Assembly: GCA_016839745.1 (NCBI GenBank)
Contig: JAEOTS010000010.1
Span: 1-33,352, forward strand
DNA from: Promethearchaeota archaeon
Lineage (GTDB): Archaea > Asgardarchaeota > Lokiarchaeia > Sigyniarchaeales > SOKP01
Length of the DNA: 33,352 bases
Reading direction: 5' to 3'
Notes under the pieces: generated by a model
What the model was told of the DNA's origin: nothing
Databases searched by the model: none
The model's input: only the letters and a program-made list of their open reading frames with translations
Part shown: positions 1-13,299 of the stretch, piece after piece
Numbering within the stretch: position 1 is the stretch's first letter
Layout of the letters: the number at the start of each line of letters is the position of its first letter
Made by a program: the position numbers and the translations under genes

Positions 1-795
1 CCGGGTTGTTTAATTGGAACAGTAATTACATCAATTACAAACTGTCTAAAAGAAAGAGGCCTCACTTCTAAAGATTATGCCATTGTATCTGGCATAGGAT
101 GTACTGGTCGATCTAGTGGCTGTTTTAAAGCACCTGCCTTCCATACTACACATGGGAGAGCCATACCTTTTGCAACAGGTATAAAATTAGCAAATCCTAA
201 ATTAAAGGTCATAGTTCTATCGGGAGATGGAGACCTTTTTGCTATTGGTGGGAATCATTTTATCCACGCGGCTAGAAGAAATATAGAGCTAACTGTTCTC
301 TGCATAAATAATAATATATATGGCATGACGGGTGGGCAAGTAGCCCCTACAAGTCAGATTGGCGACATTACTGCAACAACACCATATGGAAATGTGGAAC
401 CTCCCTTTAATTTGGTAAGTCTGGCAGCTGCGTCAGGAGCGACATATGTTGCTAGATGGCCTGCATATGACACACTTAGATTACAAAAAAGTATTTTAAA
501 ATGTATAGATAATCAAGGATTTAGTTTTATAGAAGTACTTGCTCCTTGTTTTGTCCAATATGGGTCTAAAAATAAATTAGGCGATGCTGTAGAAATGTTA
601 GAATGGTTAAAAAAGCAAATTAGGATTAAGCTTGATTGGCCCCCTCATCAGGCAACTTTTGATTTTAAGAAAGGGATTATTATTTGTGGAGAATTTGTAG
701 AAGAGGAGCGAGAAGGATTTAGCAAAAAAATAGAGCAAGTTCGAATTAATGCACAAAATAAGAAAATAGTAAGAGAAATTAAAGATAGTGACTGA
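1..795 (+). CDS. korB: 2-oxoacid:ferredoxin oxidoreductase beta subunit (KorB-like), 5'-partial
   Basis: Frame 1 is open from base 1: PGC (end of the CPGC motif), SGIGC, HTTHGRA, the TPP motif SGDGDLFAIGGNH...NNNIYGMTGGQ, and EVLAPC. The ORF track start at 325 is internal. Confidence 0.93.
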   Translation, partial: PGCLIGTVITSITNCLKERGLTSKDYAIVSGIGCTGRSSGCFKAPAFHTTHGRAIPFATGIKLANPKLKVIVLSGDGDLFAIGGNHFIHAARRNIELTVLCINNNIYGMTGGQVAPTSQIGDITATTPYGNVEPPFNLVSLAAASGATYVARWPAYDTLRLQKSILKCIDNQGFSFIEVLAPCFVQYGSKNKLGDAVEMLEWLKKQIRIKLDWPPHQATFDFKKGIIICGEFVEEEREGFSKKIEQVRINAQNKKIVREIKDSD

Positions 796-799
796 ACAT

Positions 800-3151
800 A
801 TGACTGAAAGTGATAATACACCTGATATCGAACCTAATATCGGAGTTTTCCTATGTAAATGCGGTAAAAATATCGGTGGAACTGTTGATATTGATCAATT
901 AGCTAGGGAAATTGAAAAAGATACAAGAGTCAAACTAGTTCAAGTTAATACCTATACTTGTTCTGATCCCGGGCAAGTAGAAATCGAAACAGCAATTAAA
1001 GAGCAAGGTGTAGAGAAGATAGTTGTAGCAGCATGTTCCCCGAGATTGCATGGACCAACCTGGAAAAAGCTTTTAAGACGAGTTGGAATAAATCCTTCGC
1101 TAGTAGAAGTTGCTAATCTCCGAGAACAGTGTAGTTGGGTACATCTTTCAGAGAAAGAAGAAGCGACTAAAAAGGCAAAAGAAATCCTTGAAATGGCAAT
1201 CGCTAAAGCTGAGTTATTAGAAGCAATTGATGATATTGTTGTTCCCATTACACGAAGAGTTTTAATTATTGGAGGAGGAGTAGCAGGAATTCAGGCTGCA
1301 TTAGATTTAGCTGATGAATTTGAAGTTATTCTTGTTGAAAAATCACCTACTATTGGAGGAAAGATGGCTCTCATCGATAAGACTTTTCCAACTATGGATT
1401 GTTCAATCTGTATTTTAGGTCCCAAAATGGCTGATGTAGGTAATCATGAAAATATTAATTTAATTTCCTGTGCTGAAGTTACAAATATATCTGGATATAT
1501 TGGTAATTTTGAGATAACAATTAAAAAACATCCCCGCTATGTAGATGAAAACCTTTGTACTGCATGTGGGGATTGCGTTTCAATCTGCCCTGAAAACGTT
1601 ATTGATGAGTACTCTGGCAACTTAGGTTGGAGGAAAGCAATATATATCCCTTATCCTCAAGCAGTACCAGCTTGTTATATAATCGATGAAAAGAGCTGTT
1701 TAGGGCTTTCTCCTTTAGCTTGTGGAAAATGTGTTCCTGAATGCGAAAAAGAAGCTATAATTTATGAGGACTCCGAAAAAACCTTTAATTTTAAAGTTGG
1801 AGCTATTATTATCGCAGTAGGCTTTGAACTTTTTGATGCCTCTAAACTCCCAGAATATGGATGGAATAATTATTCTAACGTTATAACAACCTTTGAATTT
1901 GAAAGGTTAATTAATGCTGCAGGACCTACAAACGGAGAACTTGTACGTCCCAGTGATCTAAAGAAACCAAAAAAAGTTGCTTTTATCAATTGTGTAGGAT
2001 CGCGTGATAAACGATTCAATCCATACTGTTCTAACTTCTGTTGCATGGAAAGTATAAAGGATAGCCTTTTGATAAAAGAGCATTGGCCTGACGTTGAGGT
2101 TACTATATTTTTTATTGATATTAGGGCTTTTGGTAAAGGATTTGAAGAATTATATTCACGTTCAAGAGAAGAAGGTGTTCTTTTTATACGTGGACGCCCT
2201 GGTCAAATTAAGGAAAATCCTATAACTAAAAATCTTAAAGTGAATGTTGAAGATATAAGCACTGGAACAATCCTCTCTGAAGAATTTGACTTAGTAGTCC
2301 TTTCTATAGGAGTGGAAGGCTCATCCGAATCTATTCCTTTTCCTGTTGCCAAGGATTCAAAAGGATTTTATATTGAAGCACATCCTAAACTTCGTCCAGT
2401 GGATACTCCGACTGATGGTATTTTCATTGCTGGGGGAGCAGAATCGCCAAAAGATATTAGGGAAACAGTTACACAAGCTAGTGCTGCAGCAGGACGCTGT
2501 GGAAATCTGCTTTCAGAAGATGAGTTCCATGTAGAACCTTTATATGCATTTGTAGATATAGAAAAATGTACTAGTTGTGGAACTTGTGTATCTCGTTGTC
2601 CTTACGGAGCTATTAGTGTTGATCGAGAAAAAAAATCACCAGCCCGAATCATTCCAGTATTATGTAAAGGTTGTGGTACATGTGCTGCAGATTGCCCTAC
2701 AGATGCTATAACTATGACAAATTTTACAGATGCTATGATCCTTAGACAAATTGATATAGCTCTTCGTGAAAATGCTTCAAAAAAAGTATTGGTCTTCGCT
2801 TGTAATTGGTGCTCATATGCGGGAGCTGATTTAGCTGGGACAAGTCGTATTCAATATCCAACTAATACGAGGATTGTTAGAACTATGTGTTCAGGACGCG
2901 TAAAAGTTTCCTTCATTAAGCACTGTTTTAACCATGGAGCTGGAGCTGTTATGTTGACTGGATGTCATCCACAAGATTGTCATTATATTTCTGGAAATGA
3001 CTTTGCCATAAAACGAGAAAAAAAAATTAGAAGTTGGATGAAGAAAAATAAAATTTCTGATGAGAGATTTGTCATTGAATGGATCTCTGCAGCAGAAGGA
3101 AAAAGATTTGCCGATGTTGTTTCGCAAGTAAGTAAAATTACTCTAAAATAA
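800..3151 (+). CDS. hdrA: Heterodisulfide reductase subunit A fused to a C-terminal MvhD (hydrogenase delta) domain
   Basis: HdrA motifs: FLCKCG, ACSPRLH, NLREQC, FAD motif IGGGVAG, KTFPTMDCSICIL, CVGSRD..YCSNFCC and CxxCxxCxxxCP ferredoxin motifs. MvhD motifs: CNWCSY, RTMCSGR, GCHPQDCHY, WISAAEG. Start is ATG 800 or GTG 788. Confidence 0.95.
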   Translation: MTESDNTPDIEPNIGVFLCKCGKNIGGTVDIDQLAREIEKDTRVKLVQVNTYTCSDPGQVEIETAIKEQGVEKIVVAACSPRLHGPTWKKLLRRVGINPSLVEVANLREQCSWVHLSEKEEATKKAKEILEMAIAKAELLEAIDDIVVPITRRVLIIGGGVAGIQAALDLADEFEVILVEKSPTIGGKMALIDKTFPTMDCSICILGPKMADVGNHENINLISCAEVTNISGYIGNFEITIKKHPRYVDENLCTACGDCVSICPENVIDEYSGNLGWRKAIYIPYPQAVPACYIIDEKSCLGLSPLACGKCVPECEKEAIIYEDSEKTFNFKVGAIIIAVGFELFDASKLPEYGWNNYSNVITTFEFERLINAAGPTNGELVRPSDLKKPKKVAFINCVGSRDKRFNPYCSNFCCMESIKDSLLIKEHWPDVEVTIFFIDIRAFGKGFEELYSRSREEGVLFIRGRPGQIKENPITKNLKVNVEDISTGTILSEEFDLVVLSIGVEGSSESIPFPVAKDSKGFYIEAHPKLRPVDTPTDGIFIAGGAESPKDIRETVTQASAAAGRCGNLLSEDEFHVEPLYAFVDIEKCTSCGTCVSRCPYGAISVDREKKSPARIIPVLCKGCGTCAADCPTDAITMTNFTDAMILRQIDIALRENASKKVLVFACNWCSYAGADLAGTSRIQYPTNTRIVRTMCSGRVKVSFIKHCFNHGAGAVMLTGCHPQDCHYISGNDFAIKREKKIRSWMKKNKISDERFVIEWISAAEGKRFADVVSQVSKITLK

Positions 3152-3321
3152 ATTTTCCTTTTTTGCTTTTCCTTAAATAATTTGAATTTTTAGATATTAA
3201 GGGGATTACTCTACTACAATTTTCAGATATTTTAATTAATCTTTTACAAGGATGTAAAAACTTTTATTCTAAATAATAATATATTTTATTACACCAATTT
3301 TAGAGTCGGGTGAAATTTGAA

Positions 3322-3674: not shown

Positions 3675-3700
3675 GTTATTTTTCCTTTTTTTTTATCCTT
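3675..3700 (+). terminator. T-rich archaeal terminator tract between convergent genes
   Basis: ttatttttccttttttttta lies downstream of the 3322-3630 CDS. Confidence 0.4.
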
Positions 3701-5142
3701 TATTTGCTCTTCTTTTTATCTAATTTTTCATTAAAATGTGAGATTTTAGATAATAACGGTAGAAATTCTTGTGGGTCTCCAAAAATGGGTACTTTGTTTT
3801 CTTTAACTTTAGTGAGAAATTCATTAATTGGTTTAGGACGAGTAAGATGCTGTGTAACTAAAATAAGTGGTTTATTGTGTTTGTGACCAAGAGCTAGACT
3901 ATCAAAAAAAATATTGAAAAATCCCTCGGGATCTTTTATCCTCGGAGGCAATGTAAGATAAAATCCAGGTAAATCTATAACGAGTCCATCGATGATATTA
4001 TCTGATAATACAAGATCAATAACTTCTTTAACAATATCAATAGCAAAGAATTGGGCGGCAAAATCGAGTGGATTATTAGGACTTGTGCCAGCCATAAAAA
4101 ACTTCTTTGAAATCTCGCTTTGCATCTCAGGGGAAAACGGAGGGACTTCTAATCCTAATGTTTCAATTAAATCGGCTAAAACAACCCCATAACCTCCGGA
4201 AATACTTATTATAGCTAGACTTCGTAGTTTAAAGACACCATAACAATCAATTAAACGAGCTGCATGAAGTAGCTGCTCTAAAGAATCAACTTCGATGATA
4301 TTATATTGGAGAAAGAAATTTTTCCAGATTTTATTATCACCTGATATTGAAGCTGTGTGAGTTTTAGCTGCAACAGCTCCTCTTTCGCTTTTTCCACCTT
4401 TTAGAACTATTATCGGTTTGGTGTTATTTCTAAGAATTGCTTTTAGGGTATTTATCCGACCTTCTTTAATTCCTTCGAGATAGCATAGAATAATTTCAGT
4501 TTCTGGATCTTCTATTAAAAAAGAGAGAAGGTCAACAAAATCTAGATCAGCGCCATTTCCAAACGAAAAAACTTTTGAAAAATTAATACCTAATTCTATA
4601 GAGGAATAGATAGCAATGTTGCATATTCCCCCAGATTGAGCAATAAATCCAATATTTCCGCGAATTGATGGGAACCCTGGACGCCAAGCGACCCCTATCT
4701 TAGGATAAAATAATCCTAATCCATTCGGCCCTAAAATTCTTACTTTATTTTTGGCTCTTCTTAGCAGTTCTTTTTCTAACTCAACACCTTTCTCTGTTCC
4801 GGCGTCTGAAAACTCTGATGTAAAAACCGTGACCAATTTTACTCCTTTTTCTACGCATTCATCCATCACTTCCAACACCTTCTTTGCTGGAATTGCGATA
4901 AATGCGAACTCTATTGCTTCTGGGATATCGAGGATTGAAGCATAAATATTTTCTTTCGGAAAATTTGGGATTTCTTCAGCATTAGGATGTACCGCGTATA
5001 TATTACCTTTAAACATATATTGGTGGTTTCTTAAAAAGAAATAATCTCTCTTTTTTGAGGCTCCTATAACCGCAATAGATCTAATATTGTTAATAAAAGA
5101 TACATCTTTTACATCGATGTCCTTATTCTCTATGTTCCCCAT
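3700..5142 (-). CDS. acdA: Acyl-CoA synthetase (ADP-forming) alpha subunit / CoA-binding protein
   Basis: IAVIGAS CoA-binding fold, RILGPNGLG, IAQSGG, SFGNGADL, YLEG, LKGG, phospho-His motif KTHTASISG, SISGG.G, NPLD. Confidence 0.88.
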   Translation of the reverse strand: MGNIENKDIDVKDVSFINNIRSIAVIGASKKRDYFFLRNHQYMFKGNIYAVHPNAEEIPNFPKENIYASILDIPEAIEFAFIAIPAKKVLEVMDECVEKGVKLVTVFTSEFSDAGTEKGVELEKELLRRAKNKVRILGPNGLGLFYPKIGVAWRPGFPSIRGNIGFIAQSGGICNIAIYSSIELGINFSKVFSFGNGADLDFVDLLSFLIEDPETEIILCYLEGIKEGRINTLKAILRNNTKPIIVLKGGKSERGAVAAKTHTASISGDNKIWKNFFLQYNIIEVDSLEQLLHAARLIDCYGVFKLRSLAIISISGGYGVVLADLIETLGLEVPPFSPEMQSEISKKFFMAGTSPNNPLDFAAQFFAIDIVKEVIDLVLSDNIIDGLVIDLPGFYLTLPPRIKDPEGFFNIFFDSLALGHKHNKPLILVTQHLTRPKPINEFLTKVKENKVPIFGDPQEFLPLLSKISHFNEKLDKKKSK

Positions 5143-5222: not shown

Positions 5223-5918
5223 CTAGCTTCTGAAAATTTCTTCGGACAGTTTCTGAATAAAATCGTCAAATTGTTCTGGGTGATATTCTACACCCAGAAA
5301 GGGTTTTATTAGTAATGGGATCTCAGAGGGGTTTACAAATACTGGCAGAAGTCTAATTCTTTCTTCTTGACTCAATTGTATTGCCGCTCCCCTCTCTAAT
5401 TTAACTGATTTTGAATCGTAAGAATGTTGAGAACAAAAGAGTACAAACACTTTTGACTTTTCTAGATTATCCTCCATATATTCTATAATATTTTGACCAC
5501 TATCTTTTTCCCAGTAATAAACATTAGATATTTCTGGATGACCTTCTAATTTTTTGGCAATCTCTTTAATTCTGAAGAAATCTGTATCTACAGTTGAATA
5601 GCTCAGAAAGATGTTAAAATCAAGTTTAGTTCCTGTTACTGCAGCTTTTACTATTCGAGCGAATTGTTGTACCCGAACGGTAGCTTCTCCTAATGCCTCT
5701 TGATTTCCGGTTTTTAAGAATTCACCTAGTTTTCCTAATACTTTTTCCATCAATTTTGCTTCTTCGATCAATACACGATTACTACTAGCTTTACACGCAT
5801 ATATCACATCGACTAACCAAAATAATTGGTCTCGAAATTGTCCCTGCGGAGGTCTTGTTTCTAATAATTTAGAAATTTTTTCCAGTGATTTGTCAGCCTG
5901 ATTTGAGTTCTCTTCCAT
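5223..5918 (-). CDS. TIR-domain protein with N-terminal helical domain
   Basis: The C-terminal ~130 aa carry IFLSYS, SKVFVLFCS..S..SKSVKLE (conserved TIR Glu position), LLPVF and IPLL. Confidence 0.85.
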   Translation of the reverse strand: MEENSNQADKSLEKISKLLETRPPQGQFRDQLFWLVDVIYACKASSNRVLIEEAKLMEKVLGKLGEFLKTGNQEALGEATVRVQQFARIVKAAVTGTKLDFNIFLSYSTVDTDFFRIKEIAKKLEGHPEISNVYYWEKDSGQNIIEYMEDNLEKSKVFVLFCSQHSYDSKSVKLERGAAIQLSQEERIRLLPVFVNPSEIPLLIKPFLGVEYHPEQFDDFIQKLSEEIFRS

Positions 5919-6019: not shown

Positions 6020-6940
6020 ATGATTACTAAGCCAATTTATCGCATGATTCGCGATTTGCATCTAGATAAAACATCTGGAGCGAGTGAATTAATTGATATT
6101 GCCTTAGATATATTAAAAATCCTGCTTGATTCCATAAAAGACCCACAAATGGATATTAAAGATGTCATACTTGAATTATCTCGTGAATTACTAAATGTAC
6201 GTCCCAGTATGGCACCTATTATCAACACTATAGGATATTTCCTTCATGATCTGGAGTCGTATACTAAAAAAGATCTTCTAGAAAGATTTACCGAATTTCC
6301 TCAATGGAGAGAACGAAGTAAAACCGCTTTATTATCGTCATTTCGTTCATTCTTGGATAATTATAGGGGAAAACGCCTTAATATTATGTTAATTTCTTAC
6401 AGCACGACAATTATTAAATGTCTAAAAGAAGAAAAAACAAGCGATTTTACTTTTTATGTTTTAGAGGCGCGCCCTTTACTTGAAGGACGTCGAACAGCAG
6501 AAATATTATCTTCAGATTATGAAACTCATCTAATTACAGATTCCTCAATGGGCAAGTTTATTAAATCTGTGGATATCGTACTTCTCGGGATTGATAGCAT
6601 ATTGCGAGACGGCTCGATTGTAAATAAAATAGGAAGTCATCCTTTAGCGTGTATAGCCGCGAATAACAACAAAAAAGTTTTTGCAGTTGGAGATTCTTAT
6701 AAATATAATCTAAAAAGTCATTATGGAAAAGAAATTATAGTCGAAGACAAGCCAATTTACGAGGTTTATAGTAAAAAGATTAAAAAACAATTATTACATG
6801 TTCATAATTATTATTTCGATATAACTCCTTCAAAATATCTAAGCGGCATAATCTCTGATTTAGGCACGTTAACAATACCTGAGTTCTTAGGAAAAGTAGT
6901 AAAAGTTATTCCATTGAACTGGTTTAAATCCTTTCTTTAA
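6020..6940 (+). CDS. eIF2B alpha/beta/delta family protein (aIF2B-like; R15P-isomerase/MtnA superfamily)
   Basis: D..SGASEL, RPSMA, EARPLLEG, LITDS, LLGIDSI..DG.IVNKIGS, NYYFDITP, IISDLG. Confidence 0.88.
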   Translation: MITKPIYRMIRDLHLDKTSGASELIDIALDILKILLDSIKDPQMDIKDVILELSRELLNVRPSMAPIINTIGYFLHDLESYTKKDLLERFTEFPQWRERSKTALLSSFRSFLDNYRGKRLNIMLISYSTTIIKCLKEEKTSDFTFYVLEARPLLEGRRTAEILSSDYETHLITDSSMGKFIKSVDIVLLGIDSILRDGSIVNKIGSHPLACIAANNNKKVFAVGDSYKYNLKSHYGKEIIVEDKPIYEVYSKKIKKQLLHVHNYYFDITPSKYLSGIISDLGTLTIPEFLGKVVKVIPLNWFKSFL

Positions 6941-8364: not shown

Positions 8365-8534
8365 TTAGAAAGCACCATTTTTACTATTATATTTGAAAAA
8401 GAGCCATATCCTAAATACTTCATCATTTCAGCACAAAAAAGATGATTATCAATTAAAGTGAATAAACTTTTTTTGGTAGTTATACTAGTCTTATTACAAT
8501 TTGATATTTTGAAAATAAAAACGTGAAAATTCAA

Positions 8535-9536
8535 ATGTTAACTCCAGAACACATAAAAGAAGTATTAAAAGACTATACTATTAATCTAAGATTCCATGCC
8601 CGTGGGGGACAAGGAGGCGTAACCGCTTCGAATCTCTGCGTGGAAGCATTCTATGGTTACGGTGTTTGTCAACCAAAATTTGGCGCAGAACGGATGGGAA
8701 GCCCAACTGAAAGCTATGTTCGACTTTCTGCGAACGCTGATCTAGTAAGATCAAACGAACAAGTTTATGGACCTCATTTTGTTTCGGTTTTAGATCCTTC
8801 TTTATTAACAGAAGTAGATGTGACGGCAGGTATACCAAAAGGAGGTTGGTTAATTGTCAATACAGAAATGGATCAATTAACTATTCAAGATGCAGTTAAA
8901 CGGAAGGATATAAATGTTGCAACAATTGATGCAACTCGAATTGCTCTCGATGTTCTAGGGAGAAATATTACGAACACCATTATATTGGGTGCTTTAATTC
9001 GTGTTTCTCATCTCTTCACGCTTGAGGAATTATCTGACGCCATAATGAAGCGATTTAAAGGAGAAGTTGCTGGAAAAAATATTCAAGCTATTAAACAGGC
9101 AATTGAAGAAACATGCGTTTACGATATGGGGATTGAACCAGATTTCACCGTGGATAGTAAAGTACCGTGGCAGCAAGTATATTTAGGGTTGCCCGGATAC
9201 AAAGATTTAGATAAAGCTGGTGTTTGGTATTGTGATGAAGATATAATCCCTGTTGGAAGTGACCTAGTAAATACGGGGTCGTGGGGAGAATGGGAGATAA
9301 TATGGGACGAAGAAACATGCACTAATTGTGCGCAATGCTGGTTTATATGCCCTGATTTTGCAACTCTTAGAAAATTAGGAGATGATGGCCAATATCACAT
9401 GGCTGGAATCGATATTCTTCACTGTAAAGCGTGTCAAAATTGCCTTAATATCTGTCCCGTTCAAGCCATAAGTAAACGAGCGAAACAAGGTCCTGCCGCT
9501 TGTGCAGTACCAGAAGAAGAAGGAGGTAGTAATTAA
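8535..9536 (+). CDS. porCD: Pyruvate/2-oxoacid:ferredoxin oxidoreductase gamma-delta fusion subunit
   Basis: Gamma motifs HARGGQG, FGAERMGSP, IDATRIA..VLGR.ITNT.ILGA, followed by delta motifs NTGSW, CTNCAQCWFICP, CKACQNCLNICP. Start is ATG 8535 or GTG 8523. Confidence 0.9.
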   Translation: MLTPEHIKEVLKDYTINLRFHARGGQGGVTASNLCVEAFYGYGVCQPKFGAERMGSPTESYVRLSANADLVRSNEQVYGPHFVSVLDPSLLTEVDVTAGIPKGGWLIVNTEMDQLTIQDAVKRKDINVATIDATRIALDVLGRNITNTIILGALIRVSHLFTLEELSDAIMKRFKGEVAGKNIQAIKQAIEETCVYDMGIEPDFTVDSKVPWQQVYLGLPGYKDLDKAGVWYCDEDIIPVGSDLVNTGSWGEWEIIWDEETCTNCAQCWFICPDFATLRKLGDDGQYHMAGIDILHCKACQNCLNICPVQAISKRAKQGPAACAVPEEEGGSN

Positions 9537-9537
9537 A

Positions 9538-10761
9538 ATGTCAATAGAACCAATGAAAATTTTCTTTAAGGAAATTAAAGAACCAACCCAAACCGCTATG
9601 ATTGGAAACTATGCAGTAGCTGGGGGGGTCACTCAAACGGATCCCGATGTAATTTGCGCTTTTCCTATTACACCGCAAACGCAATCAGTAGAGGGATTAT
9701 CCGATGTGGTTCATCAAGGAAGGTTGAAAGCAGCATTCGTTAACGTTGAATCTGAATTAGCTGCCATGAGTTATTCTACTGCTGCCTGTGCAGCGGGAGC
9801 AAGAACTTTTACTGCAACAGCATCTCAAGGTTATTTATTAATGTCAGAAGCTTTACCAATGGCTGTGGGTTGGCGAGTTCCTTTAACGATGATGATCTCC
9901 GCCCGAGCTTTCAACTCCCCAAATTTGTCTATCTGGAATAGCTGGGAATACGTTATCACTGATTATGGGTGGAACTGTATCGTTTCAGAAAATGTTCAAG
10001 AAACTTACGATGCGGCGATTTTGGCCGTAATGATATCTGATAAATCCTTATTTCCAACTATGTTTGTACACGATGGATTTATAATTTCTCACTCGGTTCA
10101 AAAACTATGGTTAAGTCCCGATGAGGTTATACGTAAATTAACGCCAAAGATGCCTCGTCATACAATATCACCTGACCATCCAGGAGTATGGGGTGGAATT
10201 GTGACTCCCGGTTATTTTATGGAGGGAAGAATGGGCCTTGATATTGCCAAAAAATCTGTACTTAATGTAATGAAAAATTCCTTTGAAGAATTCGGAAAAG
10301 CAACTGGTCGCCATTATAAGTTAATTGAGACGTATAACTTAGATAACTCATCAAAAACTGCGTTTATTACAATGGGTAGTATGTGTGGTAATATTATTAG
10401 TTGGATGACGAAGAACAAAGATATAGGGTTAATCAAAATTAGAGCCTACAGACCTTTCCCTTACGAAGAATTACAAAAAATCGTTCAAGAGCACAATATT
10501 GAAAAATTAATCATCTTAGAGAAATCAGACGCACTAAATAATCTCTTACCACCGTTTTCTACCTCGATAGCAACGGCATTATATCCACTTAATACAATAT
10601 TTAGAACTTATATTGTAGGATTAGGTGGAAGAGATGTTACAAGAGATGAATTTGATGTAACTAAAAAGAAGATGAAATCAGTGAACGACATGAAAGGGCA
10701 ACTTTACACATATCTAGGTGTAAGAGAAAGCAAAGATAAAATACATGAGGTGGATCGATAA
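9538..10761 (+). CDS. porA: Pyruvate/2-oxoacid:ferredoxin oxidoreductase alpha subunit
   Basis: GNYAVA, FPITPQT, VESE, TATASQG, DGFIISH, RPFP, GLGGRDV. SD GGAGGT precedes ATG 9538, one base after the porCD stop. Confidence 0.93.
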   Translation: MSIEPMKIFFKEIKEPTQTAMIGNYAVAGGVTQTDPDVICAFPITPQTQSVEGLSDVVHQGRLKAAFVNVESELAAMSYSTAACAAGARTFTATASQGYLLMSEALPMAVGWRVPLTMMISARAFNSPNLSIWNSWEYVITDYGWNCIVSENVQETYDAAILAVMISDKSLFPTMFVHDGFIISHSVQKLWLSPDEVIRKLTPKMPRHTISPDHPGVWGGIVTPGYFMEGRMGLDIAKKSVLNVMKNSFEEFGKATGRHYKLIETYNLDNSSKTAFITMGSMCGNIISWMTKNKDIGLIKIRAYRPFPYEELQKIVQEHNIEKLIILEKSDALNNLLPPFSTSIATALYPLNTIFRTYIVGLGGRDVTRDEFDVTKKKMKSVNDMKGQLYTYLGVRESKDKIHEVDR

Positions 10762-10762
10762 A

Positions 10763-11848
10763 ATGTCGAAACCAGAAAGAAATGTCATTCCATTTGAAGA
10801 CATTCTCGCAAGAGATGAAAAATGTACTGTATTATTCCTTAACTACGATAACGAAGCTTTTATGAACACTGGTATTCAGGAATCGGGAGGAACTCCGCCT
10901 TACGCATCAACAACGACTGGCCCGGGAGGTGAGAAAATACCAGGAAAAATCGGTGTTAAGCAAGATCTTGTCACTCCTTTTGCTTTTTTTGGCACAAAAT
11001 CTTTATTCTTAGCCAGTGCTAATCCTGCCTATCCTGCAGACTTCATGGGAAAATTCGCTGATGCAATGAAATCAAATGGATCTGCTTTCATTCAAACCTA
11101 CTCAGATTGTATGCGAGGATGGCGACATGACGCCGGTGATGCGGCAAGTATTTCAAAACTAGCTACAGATTGTGGGTATTGGCCTCTTTATACTATTAGA
11201 GTAAAAGATGGTATTCCAACTTTTTCTTATTATCGCGGATTAGATATTGATAAAGAAAAATTCGTAGAATATCTCAAATCCATGGGAAGATTCAAGCACC
11301 TCTTTAAACCAAGATTCATGGAAAAAGAAATTGACGAGATAATTTATTATACGGAACAACGAAACCTCAAAATAAAAGGACTCATAGAACAATTCGGAGC
11401 TGAAAAACCTGTAGATTTCTATAAAGTTAATCGAAGAACTTTAAAGCCTCAAACTCATCTACACCCCGGGTACGGAACATGTCCAGGTTGCGGTGCTGGA
11501 ATGGTATTAAATCAAATGGCAACTGTAGCATCTGCTATAGCTGGTAATAACATTATTTACGTAAATAATACCAGTTGCGTTGAAGTTTCTACCTCAAAAG
11601 ATAATGTAGCATCATGGAAAGTTCCTTGGGTACACCACTTATTTGAATCGGGTGCTACCGTGGCAGATGGGATAAGCACTACCTACAAAATCTTAAAAGC
11701 CAAGGGATTATACAAAGGTGAAGTGCCATATGTAATCCACATCGGTGGAGATGGATCTACGTACGATATCGGTTTTCAATTCCTTAAAGCTGCCCTCATA
11801 AGAACAAGTTCGTTCGTTGAAATGAATGAATATCTGAAACAAAAATAA
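10763..11848 (+). CDS. porB: Pyruvate/2-oxoacid:ferredoxin oxidoreductase beta subunit, circularly permuted
   Basis: All PorB motifs are present but in swapped order: YDNEAFMNTGIQ..TP / C..GW / WPLY / GRFKHL come first, then CPGCG / NNTSCVEV / PWVH.LFE / GGDG..YDIG. SD GAGGTGG precedes ATG 10763. Confidence 0.92.
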   Translation: MSKPERNVIPFEDILARDEKCTVLFLNYDNEAFMNTGIQESGGTPPYASTTTGPGGEKIPGKIGVKQDLVTPFAFFGTKSLFLASANPAYPADFMGKFADAMKSNGSAFIQTYSDCMRGWRHDAGDAASISKLATDCGYWPLYTIRVKDGIPTFSYYRGLDIDKEKFVEYLKSMGRFKHLFKPRFMEKEIDEIIYYTEQRNLKIKGLIEQFGAEKPVDFYKVNRRTLKPQTHLHPGYGTCPGCGAGMVLNQMATVASAIAGNNIIYVNNTSCVEVSTSKDNVASWKVPWVHHLFESGATVADGISTTYKILKAKGLYKGEVPYVIHIGGDGSTYDIGFQFLKAALIRTSSFVEMNEYLKQK

Positions 11849-11871
11849 TCTATTTTTATTCTTTTTTATTT
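11849..11871 (+). terminator. T-rich terminator of the por operon
   Basis: tctatttttattcttttttattt immediately follows the porB stop. Confidence 0.5.
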
Positions 11872-12075
11872 AAAATTATTGCTAATCCTCCAGTATGTCT
11901 ATTTCATCTAGAAAAATTAATTATTCCTACGTAAAAATTTCTAATTAATTGTCTATTTTCAAAATAAACAATAATTTATACATATAAGTCTTTAAATATT
12001 GATTTAGCTTATTTATCTTTATTGAAATCTCTCATAAAAAAGGATTCTATAAATAATGATTTAATGTATAATAAA

Positions 12076-13299
12076 ATGAATAAAAGAATTTGGGCAACTT
12101 TATTCATACTTTTCGCATTTATAGGGCAGATCGTTGGAATAGGGTTTGTAAAAGTTGAATATATTCAAGCTAGAGAAAATGTCAACAAACTTCTGGAAGA
12201 CCGAAATTCTAGCTTGCATTCTGCTTCTACAGAATTTATAATTCCCTCAGTTCCACACTACTACCAAACAACAAGTTACTATTGCGGACCTGCAAGTTTA
12301 GAAATGGTGTGTGATTTTTATGGACCTGATATTGCACAATTAGAGATAGCAGATGTTGCTCGAGCAGACGTATCTTATGGAGCTTACACAAGTGATCTGA
12401 GACGAGCAACTCATTTTAGTAATTTAAGTATATCTTTAGGTAATGATATGGGTGGAAATATAACGGGATATACAAATAGATCAATTGGATATGGTGCTTT
12501 TGAAGCACATTTAACAAATGTTAATCATCTAGTCGATTTAATTGGAGACGGATACCCGATCGTGGTTTTGCAACATTATGATGAATCACATATTACTGGG
12601 CATTTTAGAGTAGTTATAGGCTATGTTAGAAATGGTGATATTTCTCAATTAATAGTACATGATCCTTGGTATTCTGGATTTTACTCAGGACCTAATGTTT
12701 ACATTAGTTATAATACATTTGTTGATTTATGGACTCGTTATTCAAATTGGACACTTTTTATTTGTCCATGGGAAATAACCGTAAGTTGCTCATCAATAGT
12801 AACAATAAATTCAACCTTTACAATAAGCGCTAATGTTGAATATATACGTCCAACATATTATAGTCCAGCGTATTCGGCTTCTTCATGTCAAGCGACTATA
12901 CAGCTACCATTGGGTTTTTCTCTTGCACCTGGTGAGATGTATACTAAAAATCTTAATCCAGCAAACCTCCTATCGGGAGAAAATGGAACAATTACATGGC
13001 AAGTGGTGGCAGACGTTATTAATAGTACAGGACTTATTTCCGTAAATGCTAGCGGTTTAGTATCAGGTACTGCATATGCTCGTCCACCTGTGTACCCTAC
13101 TGGATATACTTATAATGATTTGATTGGAGGTAATGGAAGTAAATCAGTTACAATAGTAGAAACAATAGTAGAACCATTACCAGAGGATGAGAATATACTT
13201 CCCATTATTATCATCTCAACTGCTATAACAGGTGCTGCTATTATAAGTATTGTTGTTGTATTTAAAGTACGTAAAGCTAAGAGAAAAACTCCAGAGTAA
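12076..13299 (+). CDS. Secreted, membrane-anchored C39-like cysteine peptidase with Ig-like domain
   Basis: N-terminal signal-like hydrophobic stretch; VPHYYQ...YCGPASLEM (Gln/Cys), GHFRVVIGY (His), VHDPW (Asp); beta-rich domain (..LPLGF..L..GE..TITWQV); C-terminal TM helix plus basic tail. Start uncertain (12064 or 12076). Confidence 0.8.
   Translation: MNKRIWATLFILFAFIGQIVGIGFVKVEYIQARENVNKLLEDRNSSLHSASTEFIIPSVPHYYQTTSYYCGPASLEMVCDFYGPDIAQLEIADVARADVSYGAYTSDLRRATHFSNLSISLGNDMGGNITGYTNRSIGYGAFEAHLTNVNHLVDLIGDGYPIVVLQHYDESHITGHFRVVIGYVRNGDISQLIVHDPWYSGFYSGPNVYISYNTFVDLWTRYSNWTLFICPWEITVSCSSIVTINSTFTISANVEYIRPTYYSPAYSASSCQATIQLPLGFSLAPGEMYTKNLNPANLLSGENGTITWQVVADVINSTGLISVNASGLVSGTAYARPPVYPTGYTYNDLIGGNGSKSVTIVETIVEPLPEDENILPIIIISTAITGAAIISIVVVFKVRKAKRKTPE

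Follow-up and report, generated by a model that had tools for sequence, protein, structure and literature searches.

A circularly permuted PorB gene conserved across the Lokiarchaeia

Can the signature motif with which a thiamine-diphosphate enzyme holds its cofactor be split between the two ends of a polypeptide chain, and if so, is a gene encoding such a chain a genuine and maintained one? The question is raised by the last gene of a 2-oxoacid:ferredoxin oxidoreductase operon in the 33,352 nucleotides of a lokiarchaeial contig analysed here (the window), whose product was described in an earlier note, made from the letters of the DNA, as a circularly permuted beta subunit. The best overall explanation, which we regard as very probable, is that this gene encodes a natural circular permutant of PorB (domain VI) of a pyruvate-type 2-oxoacid:ferredoxin oxidoreductase.

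The open reading frame extends from the ATG at 10763 to the TAA at 11846-11848 and encodes 361 residues with zero internal stops (Table 1). It is thus uninterrupted, as had been noted before, and it is also coupled to porA, because it starts 1 nt past the porA stop and is preceded by its own Shine-Dalgarno-like GAGGTG. Similar GGAG or GAGGTG motifs are found in front of the start in three other loci (L055, L056, and L061). The ATG at 10745 was considered as an alternative start and rejected, because the homologues begin at the MS(K/Q)PE position and because GAGGTG precedes 10763. The T-runs behind the stop codon are consistent with a putative archaeal oligo-T terminator. Concerning the partner genes, the single open reading frame of porGD matches Pfam POR at residues 28-195 and the Fer4 dicluster at residues 259-316, and porA matches Pfam POR_N with an E-value of 2e-53 and, in addition, PFOR_II.

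Table 1. Positions in the window of the operon genes, of the segments of the permuted porB, and of putative signals
Feature	Position	Strand	Remarks
porGD	8523..9536	+	gamma (POR/CoA-binding domain) and delta (2x[4Fe-4S] ferredoxin), one 337-aa ORF
porA	9538..10761	+	alpha subunit, domains I and II, 407 aa from ATG 9538
Shine-Dalgarno-like GAGGTG	10747..10752	+	within porA end, 10 nt 5' of the permuted porB start; read from sequence
Permuted porB	10763..11848	+	circularly permuted beta subunit, 361 aa plus stop; profile matches, alignment, genome survey
Head, residues 1-19	10763..10819	+	extra N-terminal segment, no counterpart there in canonical PorB
Residues 20-197	10820..11353	+	canonical PorB C-terminal part (9bt4_C 117-287)
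Linker, residues 198-226	11354..11440	+	connects old C-terminus to old N-terminus
Residues 227-346	11441..11800	+	canonical PorB N-terminal part (9bt4_C 5-115)
Tail, residues 347-361	11801..11845	+	extra C-terminal segment outside the profile matches
Two T-runs after the stop	11853..11867	+	T5 11853-11857, T6 11862-11867; read from sequence

Order of the PorB halves and conservation of the ligands

The permutation rests on two profile comparisons, both of which give the matches in reversed order. Against the NCBIfam PorB model NF008819 (300 positions), residues 22-192 correspond to model positions 120-284 and residues 230-352 to model positions 11-122. The earlier note had proposed to compare the halves separately with such a profile and had expected the hits in reversed order, which is what was obtained, with E-values of 3e-35 and 1e-23 for the two stretches alone. 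The entire protein reaches 203.5 bits, the cut-off being 405, in two stretches of swapped order and with no collinear match. The profile of a 24-member family, aligned to the solved PorB of M. acetivorans (9bt4 chain C), places residues 227-346 on chain residues 5-115 and residues 20-197 on chain residues 117-287. At the level of sequence comparison the reversed order of the halves is confirmed, far beyond chance. Because of the two reversed matches the new termini are located between residues 115 and 117 of the solved chain, in sequence terms after the GDG helix and before the DNE-bearing strand, and therefore inside the GDG-X(24-27)-N motif as had been claimed. A contiguous motif of this kind is absent; its two parts are located at residues 330 and 30.

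The first of the two matched stretches contains the DNE strand (N30), the NTG loop, the fourth cluster cysteine (C116), WPLY, and GRFKHL, and the second one contains CPGCG (C240 and C243), NNTSC (C272), PWVHHLFE, and GGDG (D330) together with its helix. The approximate motif positions given in the earlier note proved exact, since 10844 is the position of Y28 in YDNEAFMNTGIQ, 11480 that of C240 in CPGCG, and 11744 that of G328 in GGDGSTYDIG. The linker sits between the two profile matches, in a region where the model has a long helix (residues 187-211), and the head, outside both matches, is modelled as a strand (residues 6-10) followed by a helix (residues 11-15). All ligands that were said to be retained are indeed present in the canonical ligand columns and invariant in 24 aligned homologues spanning 53-92% identity, namely the four cluster cysteines C240, C243, C272, and C116, the GDG aspartate D330, and the DNE asparagine N30, the latter two being the thiamine-diphosphate/Mg ligands. 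Invariant are also G329-D330-G331, N27-Y28-D29-N30-E31, and N35-T36-G37, whose asparagine we take to be the counterpart of the pyruvate-contacting asparagine in the D. africanus PFOR. Given the four cysteines, the protein is predicted to bind a [4Fe-4S] cluster.

The halves score highest against PorB and next against oxalate and VOR-type models. In contrast, the complete protein is easily missed in annotation. The Pfam domain TPP_enzyme_C (PF02775) obtains 21.8 bits, just below its gathering cut-off of 21.9, and it is only the second half of the model (positions 70-150 of 151) that is matched, by residues 18-111. Because this domain matches half of its model and under the cut-off, the homologues are labelled "hypothetical protein" at NCBI. 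The low Pfam and NCBIfam scores are explained by the reversed halves, since each half alone scores well. Metabolic reconstructions of Lokiarchaeia can therefore miss the beta subunit of this oxidoreductase.

Of the known systems, the PorB of the four-subunit M. acetivorans enzyme, the family of NF008819, is homologous to both halves (profile E-value 2e-55, about 30% identity) and shares the thiamine-diphosphate/Mg ligands, the four cysteines of the proximal [4Fe-4S] cluster, and the alpha, gamma, and delta partners. It differs in that the halves are swapped in the lokiarchaeial protein, which in addition has about 65 extra residues in head, linker, tail, and one insertion. The canonical PorBs of the other Asgard classes and of Bathyarchaeia (L038-L054 and the P0126 and P0128 clusters, which are named "pyruvate ferredoxin oxidoreductase beta subunit") have about 320-335 residues and are the nearest relatives. 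They occupy the same last place in porG-porD-porA-porB operons and are 37-45% identical per half, but their halves are in canonical order and, unlike in the permuted operon, gamma and delta are separate. The beta subunit of the Moorella thermoacetica oxalate oxidoreductase (5c4i chain C) is likewise homologous in both halves (profile E-value 7e-55, fold Z 10.8), but it has the canonical order, another substrate, and another operon. In 2-oxoacid:ferredoxin oxidoreductases and other thiamine-diphosphate enzymes whole domains have been fused, split, or reordered. Those shuffles reuse the same catalytic modules, whereas the lokiarchaeial protein is broken within a single domain, in the very signature motif of that domain.

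Two canonical PorBs, P0124 (852 aa, Altiarchaeales) and P0136 (859 aa), contain an intein with a LAGLIDADG endonuclease (Intein_splicing at residues 133-667). It is inserted in the same thiamine-diphosphate motif, between the GDG helix, which ends near residue 121, and YDNE at residue 673, within about 10 residues of the permutation cut.

Distribution, selection, and origin in the class

In total 400 genomes of the phylum were searched, a full-length collinear match being defined by an E-value below 1e-120. Collinear homologues, for which the earlier note had suggested a search, are encoded in about 130 of the 160 sampled genomes of Lokiarchaeia and in all seven families. These are about 108 of 134 genomes in the window's own family, and 1 of 1, 12 of 14, 4 of 4, 1 of 3, 2 of 2, and 2 of 2 genomes in the other six. 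In about 240 genomes of other Asgard classes no collinear homologue was found, one probable contaminant (G075) aside, and these genomes have only half matches of 36-45% identity, which represent canonical PorB. G075 was rejected as a true carrier and is treated as probable contamination, because its 84%-identical copy is a fragment on a short contig and ends at residue 266 at the contig edge. Among 1.84 billion representative proteins, clustered at 50% identity and searched exhaustively with HMMER, the family makes up one cluster, with P0122 from a Helarchaeota MAG as its only full-length collinear entry besides fragments, and all other matches listed have the canonical order. In a protein search the best 120 of 268 matches are almost all collinear, have 359-368 residues and 53-92% identity, and come exclusively from Asgard assemblies. 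Exact members of the family, all labelled hypothetical, are encoded by Promethearchaeum syntrophicum (QEE14985.1, DSAG12_00808, on a 4.32-Mb contig), Lokiarchaeum ossiferum (UYP46588.1, on a 6.04-Mb contig), and Harpocratesius repetitus.

The reading frame is intact, and purifying selection on it is strong. Compared to the five closest orthologues the Nei-Gojobori dN/dS is 0.05-0.08 at dS 0.5-0.9, and it is low in both halves as well as in the linker (0.015-0.29). Together with the class-wide conservation these values support the earlier view of an evolved functional gene, the function itself being deduced from sequence. The gene is missing from about 20% of the class, in part through assembly effects and in part genuinely. 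In G207 porA ends 22 bases from the contig end, which accounts for part of the absences. Others are real because the whole operon is absent from G267 (100% complete, same genus) and because the gene is shortened in G270. The operon is thus dispensable in some relatives.

In G270, also of the same genus and 100% complete, the permuted gene (L067, G270:C54, 2450-2878) breaks off after about 24 codons, and AT-rich non-coding DNA comes behind it. The porGD and porA genes remain. This looks like a recent loss of the beta gene. Another deviating locus, L023 (G258:C34, 418-2535), has a 705-aa open reading frame in which PorA residues 1-317 are in frame with residues 19-361 of the permuted PorB. Either a natural fusion of alpha and beta accompanied by a deletion or a mistake of the assembly could explain this frame, and at 3055-3264 the same locus has another partial match that is beta-like.

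The window and 10 of 12 distant class loci share the operon order porGD-porA-permuted porB. The gamma-delta fusion is present in each of the 12 class loci examined. In seven loci of other Asgard classes gamma and delta are encoded separately, and porG, porD, porA, and a canonical porB follow one another in the corresponding order. In one genome assembled as a single contig (G279:C1) the permuted porB (1502548-1503603) is separated by about 540 kb from porGD-porA (2045967-2048108), and all three genes are intact.

For the phylogenetic tree the family was de-permuted by script and combined with 64 canonical PorBs, the canonical Asgard sequences being chosen as best query matches. The permuted clade has 100/100 support and a stem of 1.24 changes per site. 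It groups with the canonical PorBs of the other Asgard classes and a Bathyarchaeia cluster (84 bootstrap, 97 SH-aLRT), support for the exact sister group being moderate. The two canonical PorBs encoded in the genome of the window fall outside this group. Because the other Asgard classes share the operon order with a canonical porB that is the nearest relative, the permutation probably belongs at the stem of the Lokiarchaeia and within the operon. The simplest reading of the sequences is that there was probably one event, in place, at the class stem, which replaced the ancestral ortholog. It most likely happened once, in the last gene of an ancestral porG-porD-porA-porB operon, and together with, or close to, the fusion of gamma and delta.

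Relics of a tandem duplication were searched by comparing profiles of the head (residues 4-20) and the tail (residues 347-361) with every ungapped window of canonical PorB. With the in-register GDG helix the head takes rank 3-4 among about 277 windows (z 2.7-2.8). With the old N-terminus (TLKDLAKKPD) it takes rank 2-3 among about 310 windows (z 3.3), and a higher score was obtained for an unrelated amphipathic helix. For the tail an in-register signal was not found among the canonical PorB windows.

Predicted structure and subunit pairing

The AlphaFold2 model of the permuted protein is a single compact domain with a pTM of 0.84 and a mean pLDDT of 76, poor confidence being confined to the cofactor loops (residues 32-65 and 274-281, pLDDT below 50). 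VIA-align superimposes the model on PFOR domain VI and on 9bt4 chain C with Z-scores of 11-12 over about 180 residues (11.1 over 179 residues for the M. acetivorans chain), and Foldseek yields TM-scores of 0.41-0.50 with about half of the model covered. Coverage of about half is expected for a permutant because both programs are sequential aligners.

The domain of PorB has a Rossmann-like architecture, in which the helix-to-strand loops lie across the sheet from the cofactor. The cut would lie in such a loop, between the helix and the next strand of a beta-alpha-beta unit. Because this is the side away from the cofactor, the reordered chain should be able to rebuild the thiamine-diphosphate/Mg and [4Fe-4S] sites. 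The chain begins at the strand with the DNE asparagine, continues through the old C-terminal part, passes via the linker of about 29 residues into the old N-terminus, and ends just past the GDG helix, and the split motif would be restored in space.

In co-folding, PorA and the permuted PorB reach an ipSAE of 0.80, while the best control has 0.00. The runs share at least 96% of the contacts and the partner pLDDT is at least 86. Among solved complexes 58 of 80 come up to the mark of 0.80, and among mismatched pairs 2 of 110 do so. Since similar complexes have already been solved, the prediction may reflect likeness to these and not binding. The predicted PorA interface comprises residues 262-358, including residues 347, 351, 355, and 357-358 of the tail. 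PorA itself is 58-93% identical across the class, with T45, E71/E73, and R123 invariant. If the permuted subunit pairs with PorA and works with the gamma-delta fusion, the enzyme would consist of three polypeptides instead of the four of M. acetivorans, because gamma and delta are fused. From its sequence it would be expected to oxidise pyruvate or a related 2-oxoacid to the acyl-CoA while reducing ferredoxin.

The PorAs of the permuted operons have two class-wide fixed peculiarities. At residues 71-76 there is ESEL where canonical PorA has ESEH, and at residues 128-140 there is LSIWNSWE[FY] where the canonical relatives have NIH.DHSD.

Competing explanations, significance, and neighbourhood

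The unusual order of the halves could in principle have been produced in the computer and not in the cell, if the halves of a normal porB had been joined in the wrong order during assembly or binning. The genome of the window is fragmented into 192 contigs and 89% complete, which would suit such an error. However, the same order recurs in more than 120 independent assemblies and in about 130 class genomes, some of which are closed or nearly closed and come from cultured species, and purifying selection acts on the linker as well as on both halves. An artefact is refuted in practice and has next to no probability. It is also highly improbable that the gene is a remnant, either in decay or non-catalytic, whose product has become a pseudo-enzyme and has lost the binding of thiamine diphosphate through the splitting of its motif. 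The scores below the curated cut-offs, the presence of two canonical PorB operons in the genome that could cover the function, and the loss or breakage of the operon in some relatives might be taken as signs of decay, but the low scores are due to the reversed order, with each half good alone. The low dN/dS, ligand residues that are invariant down to 53% identity, and the conservation of the PorA and gamma-delta partners, even where they are unlinked in a closed genome, do not fit a remnant.

A further possibility is that the permuted enzyme has been neofunctionalised and has a different substrate, electron partner, or regulation than its canonical ancestor, with the new termini contributing to a new interface. 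Such a change is possible because the stem is long and PorA has lineage-specific substitutions, which are near the active-site region. The predicted contact of the C-terminal tail with PorA and the coexistence with two canonical POR/VOR-type operons point in the same direction. However, all known thiamine-diphosphate, Mg, and cluster ligands have been kept, as has the asparagine of the NTG loop. In addition, the genome itself does not encode a canonical gene of the sister subgroup, and the permuted gene therefore looks like a replacement and not like an addition, so that we consider neofunctionalisation quite unlikely. Unlikely is also a broader proposal, that the permutation was not neutral and that, in combination with the fused gamma-delta gene and the altered PorA, it gave rise to an oxidoreductase specific to the Lokiarchaeia, in which the chain ends at the alpha-beta interface alter assembly, oxygen sensitivity, substrate range, or the electron partner. 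If true, this would be a lineage-defining change in the central fermentative enzyme of the archaea closest to eukaryotes. The reading to be preferred is the natural permutant of PorB. The permutation is, from the sequence data, real, old, and selected, and an enzymatic function is the expected one.

A search of the literature in full text, including locus tags and accessions, found no description of a permuted PorB, subscription journals being largely outside its coverage, and within this scope the novelty claimed before stands. As far as could be found, this would be the first circular permutation in nature to interrupt the diphosphate-binding domain of a thiamine-diphosphate enzyme, and it would demonstrate that the residues of the signature GDG...N motif can be separated in the sequence. 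For the class Lokiarchaeia the permutation is, moreover, a clean synapomorphy. The permuted gene and its canonical relatives in the same operon form a natural pair in which the in-place origin of a permutation and its cost can be studied. The gene should therefore be of interest to specialists in thiamine-diphosphate enzymes as well as in Asgard metabolism.

The window contains further genes around the operon. At positions 1-795 a second oxidoreductase beta gene, which is canonical (TPP_enzyme_C, 115 bits), is present with its 3' part. It is overlapped by the gene (788-3151) of an HdrA-like flavoprotein of 787 aa, which has Fe-S domains and, at its C-terminus, an MvhD/FlpD domain. An ADP-forming acyl-CoA synthetase-like gene is located at 3700-5142 on the reverse strand. 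This gene and the other oxidoreductase beta gene fit a fermentative use of 2-oxoacids. A TIR-domain gene (5223-5918, reverse strand) and an IF-2B family gene (6020-6940, forward strand) are arranged head to head. Just 3' of the operon, at 12022-13299, a 425-aa protein is encoded that has a Peptidase_C39_2 domain, an N-terminal membrane segment, and a C-terminal membrane anchor.
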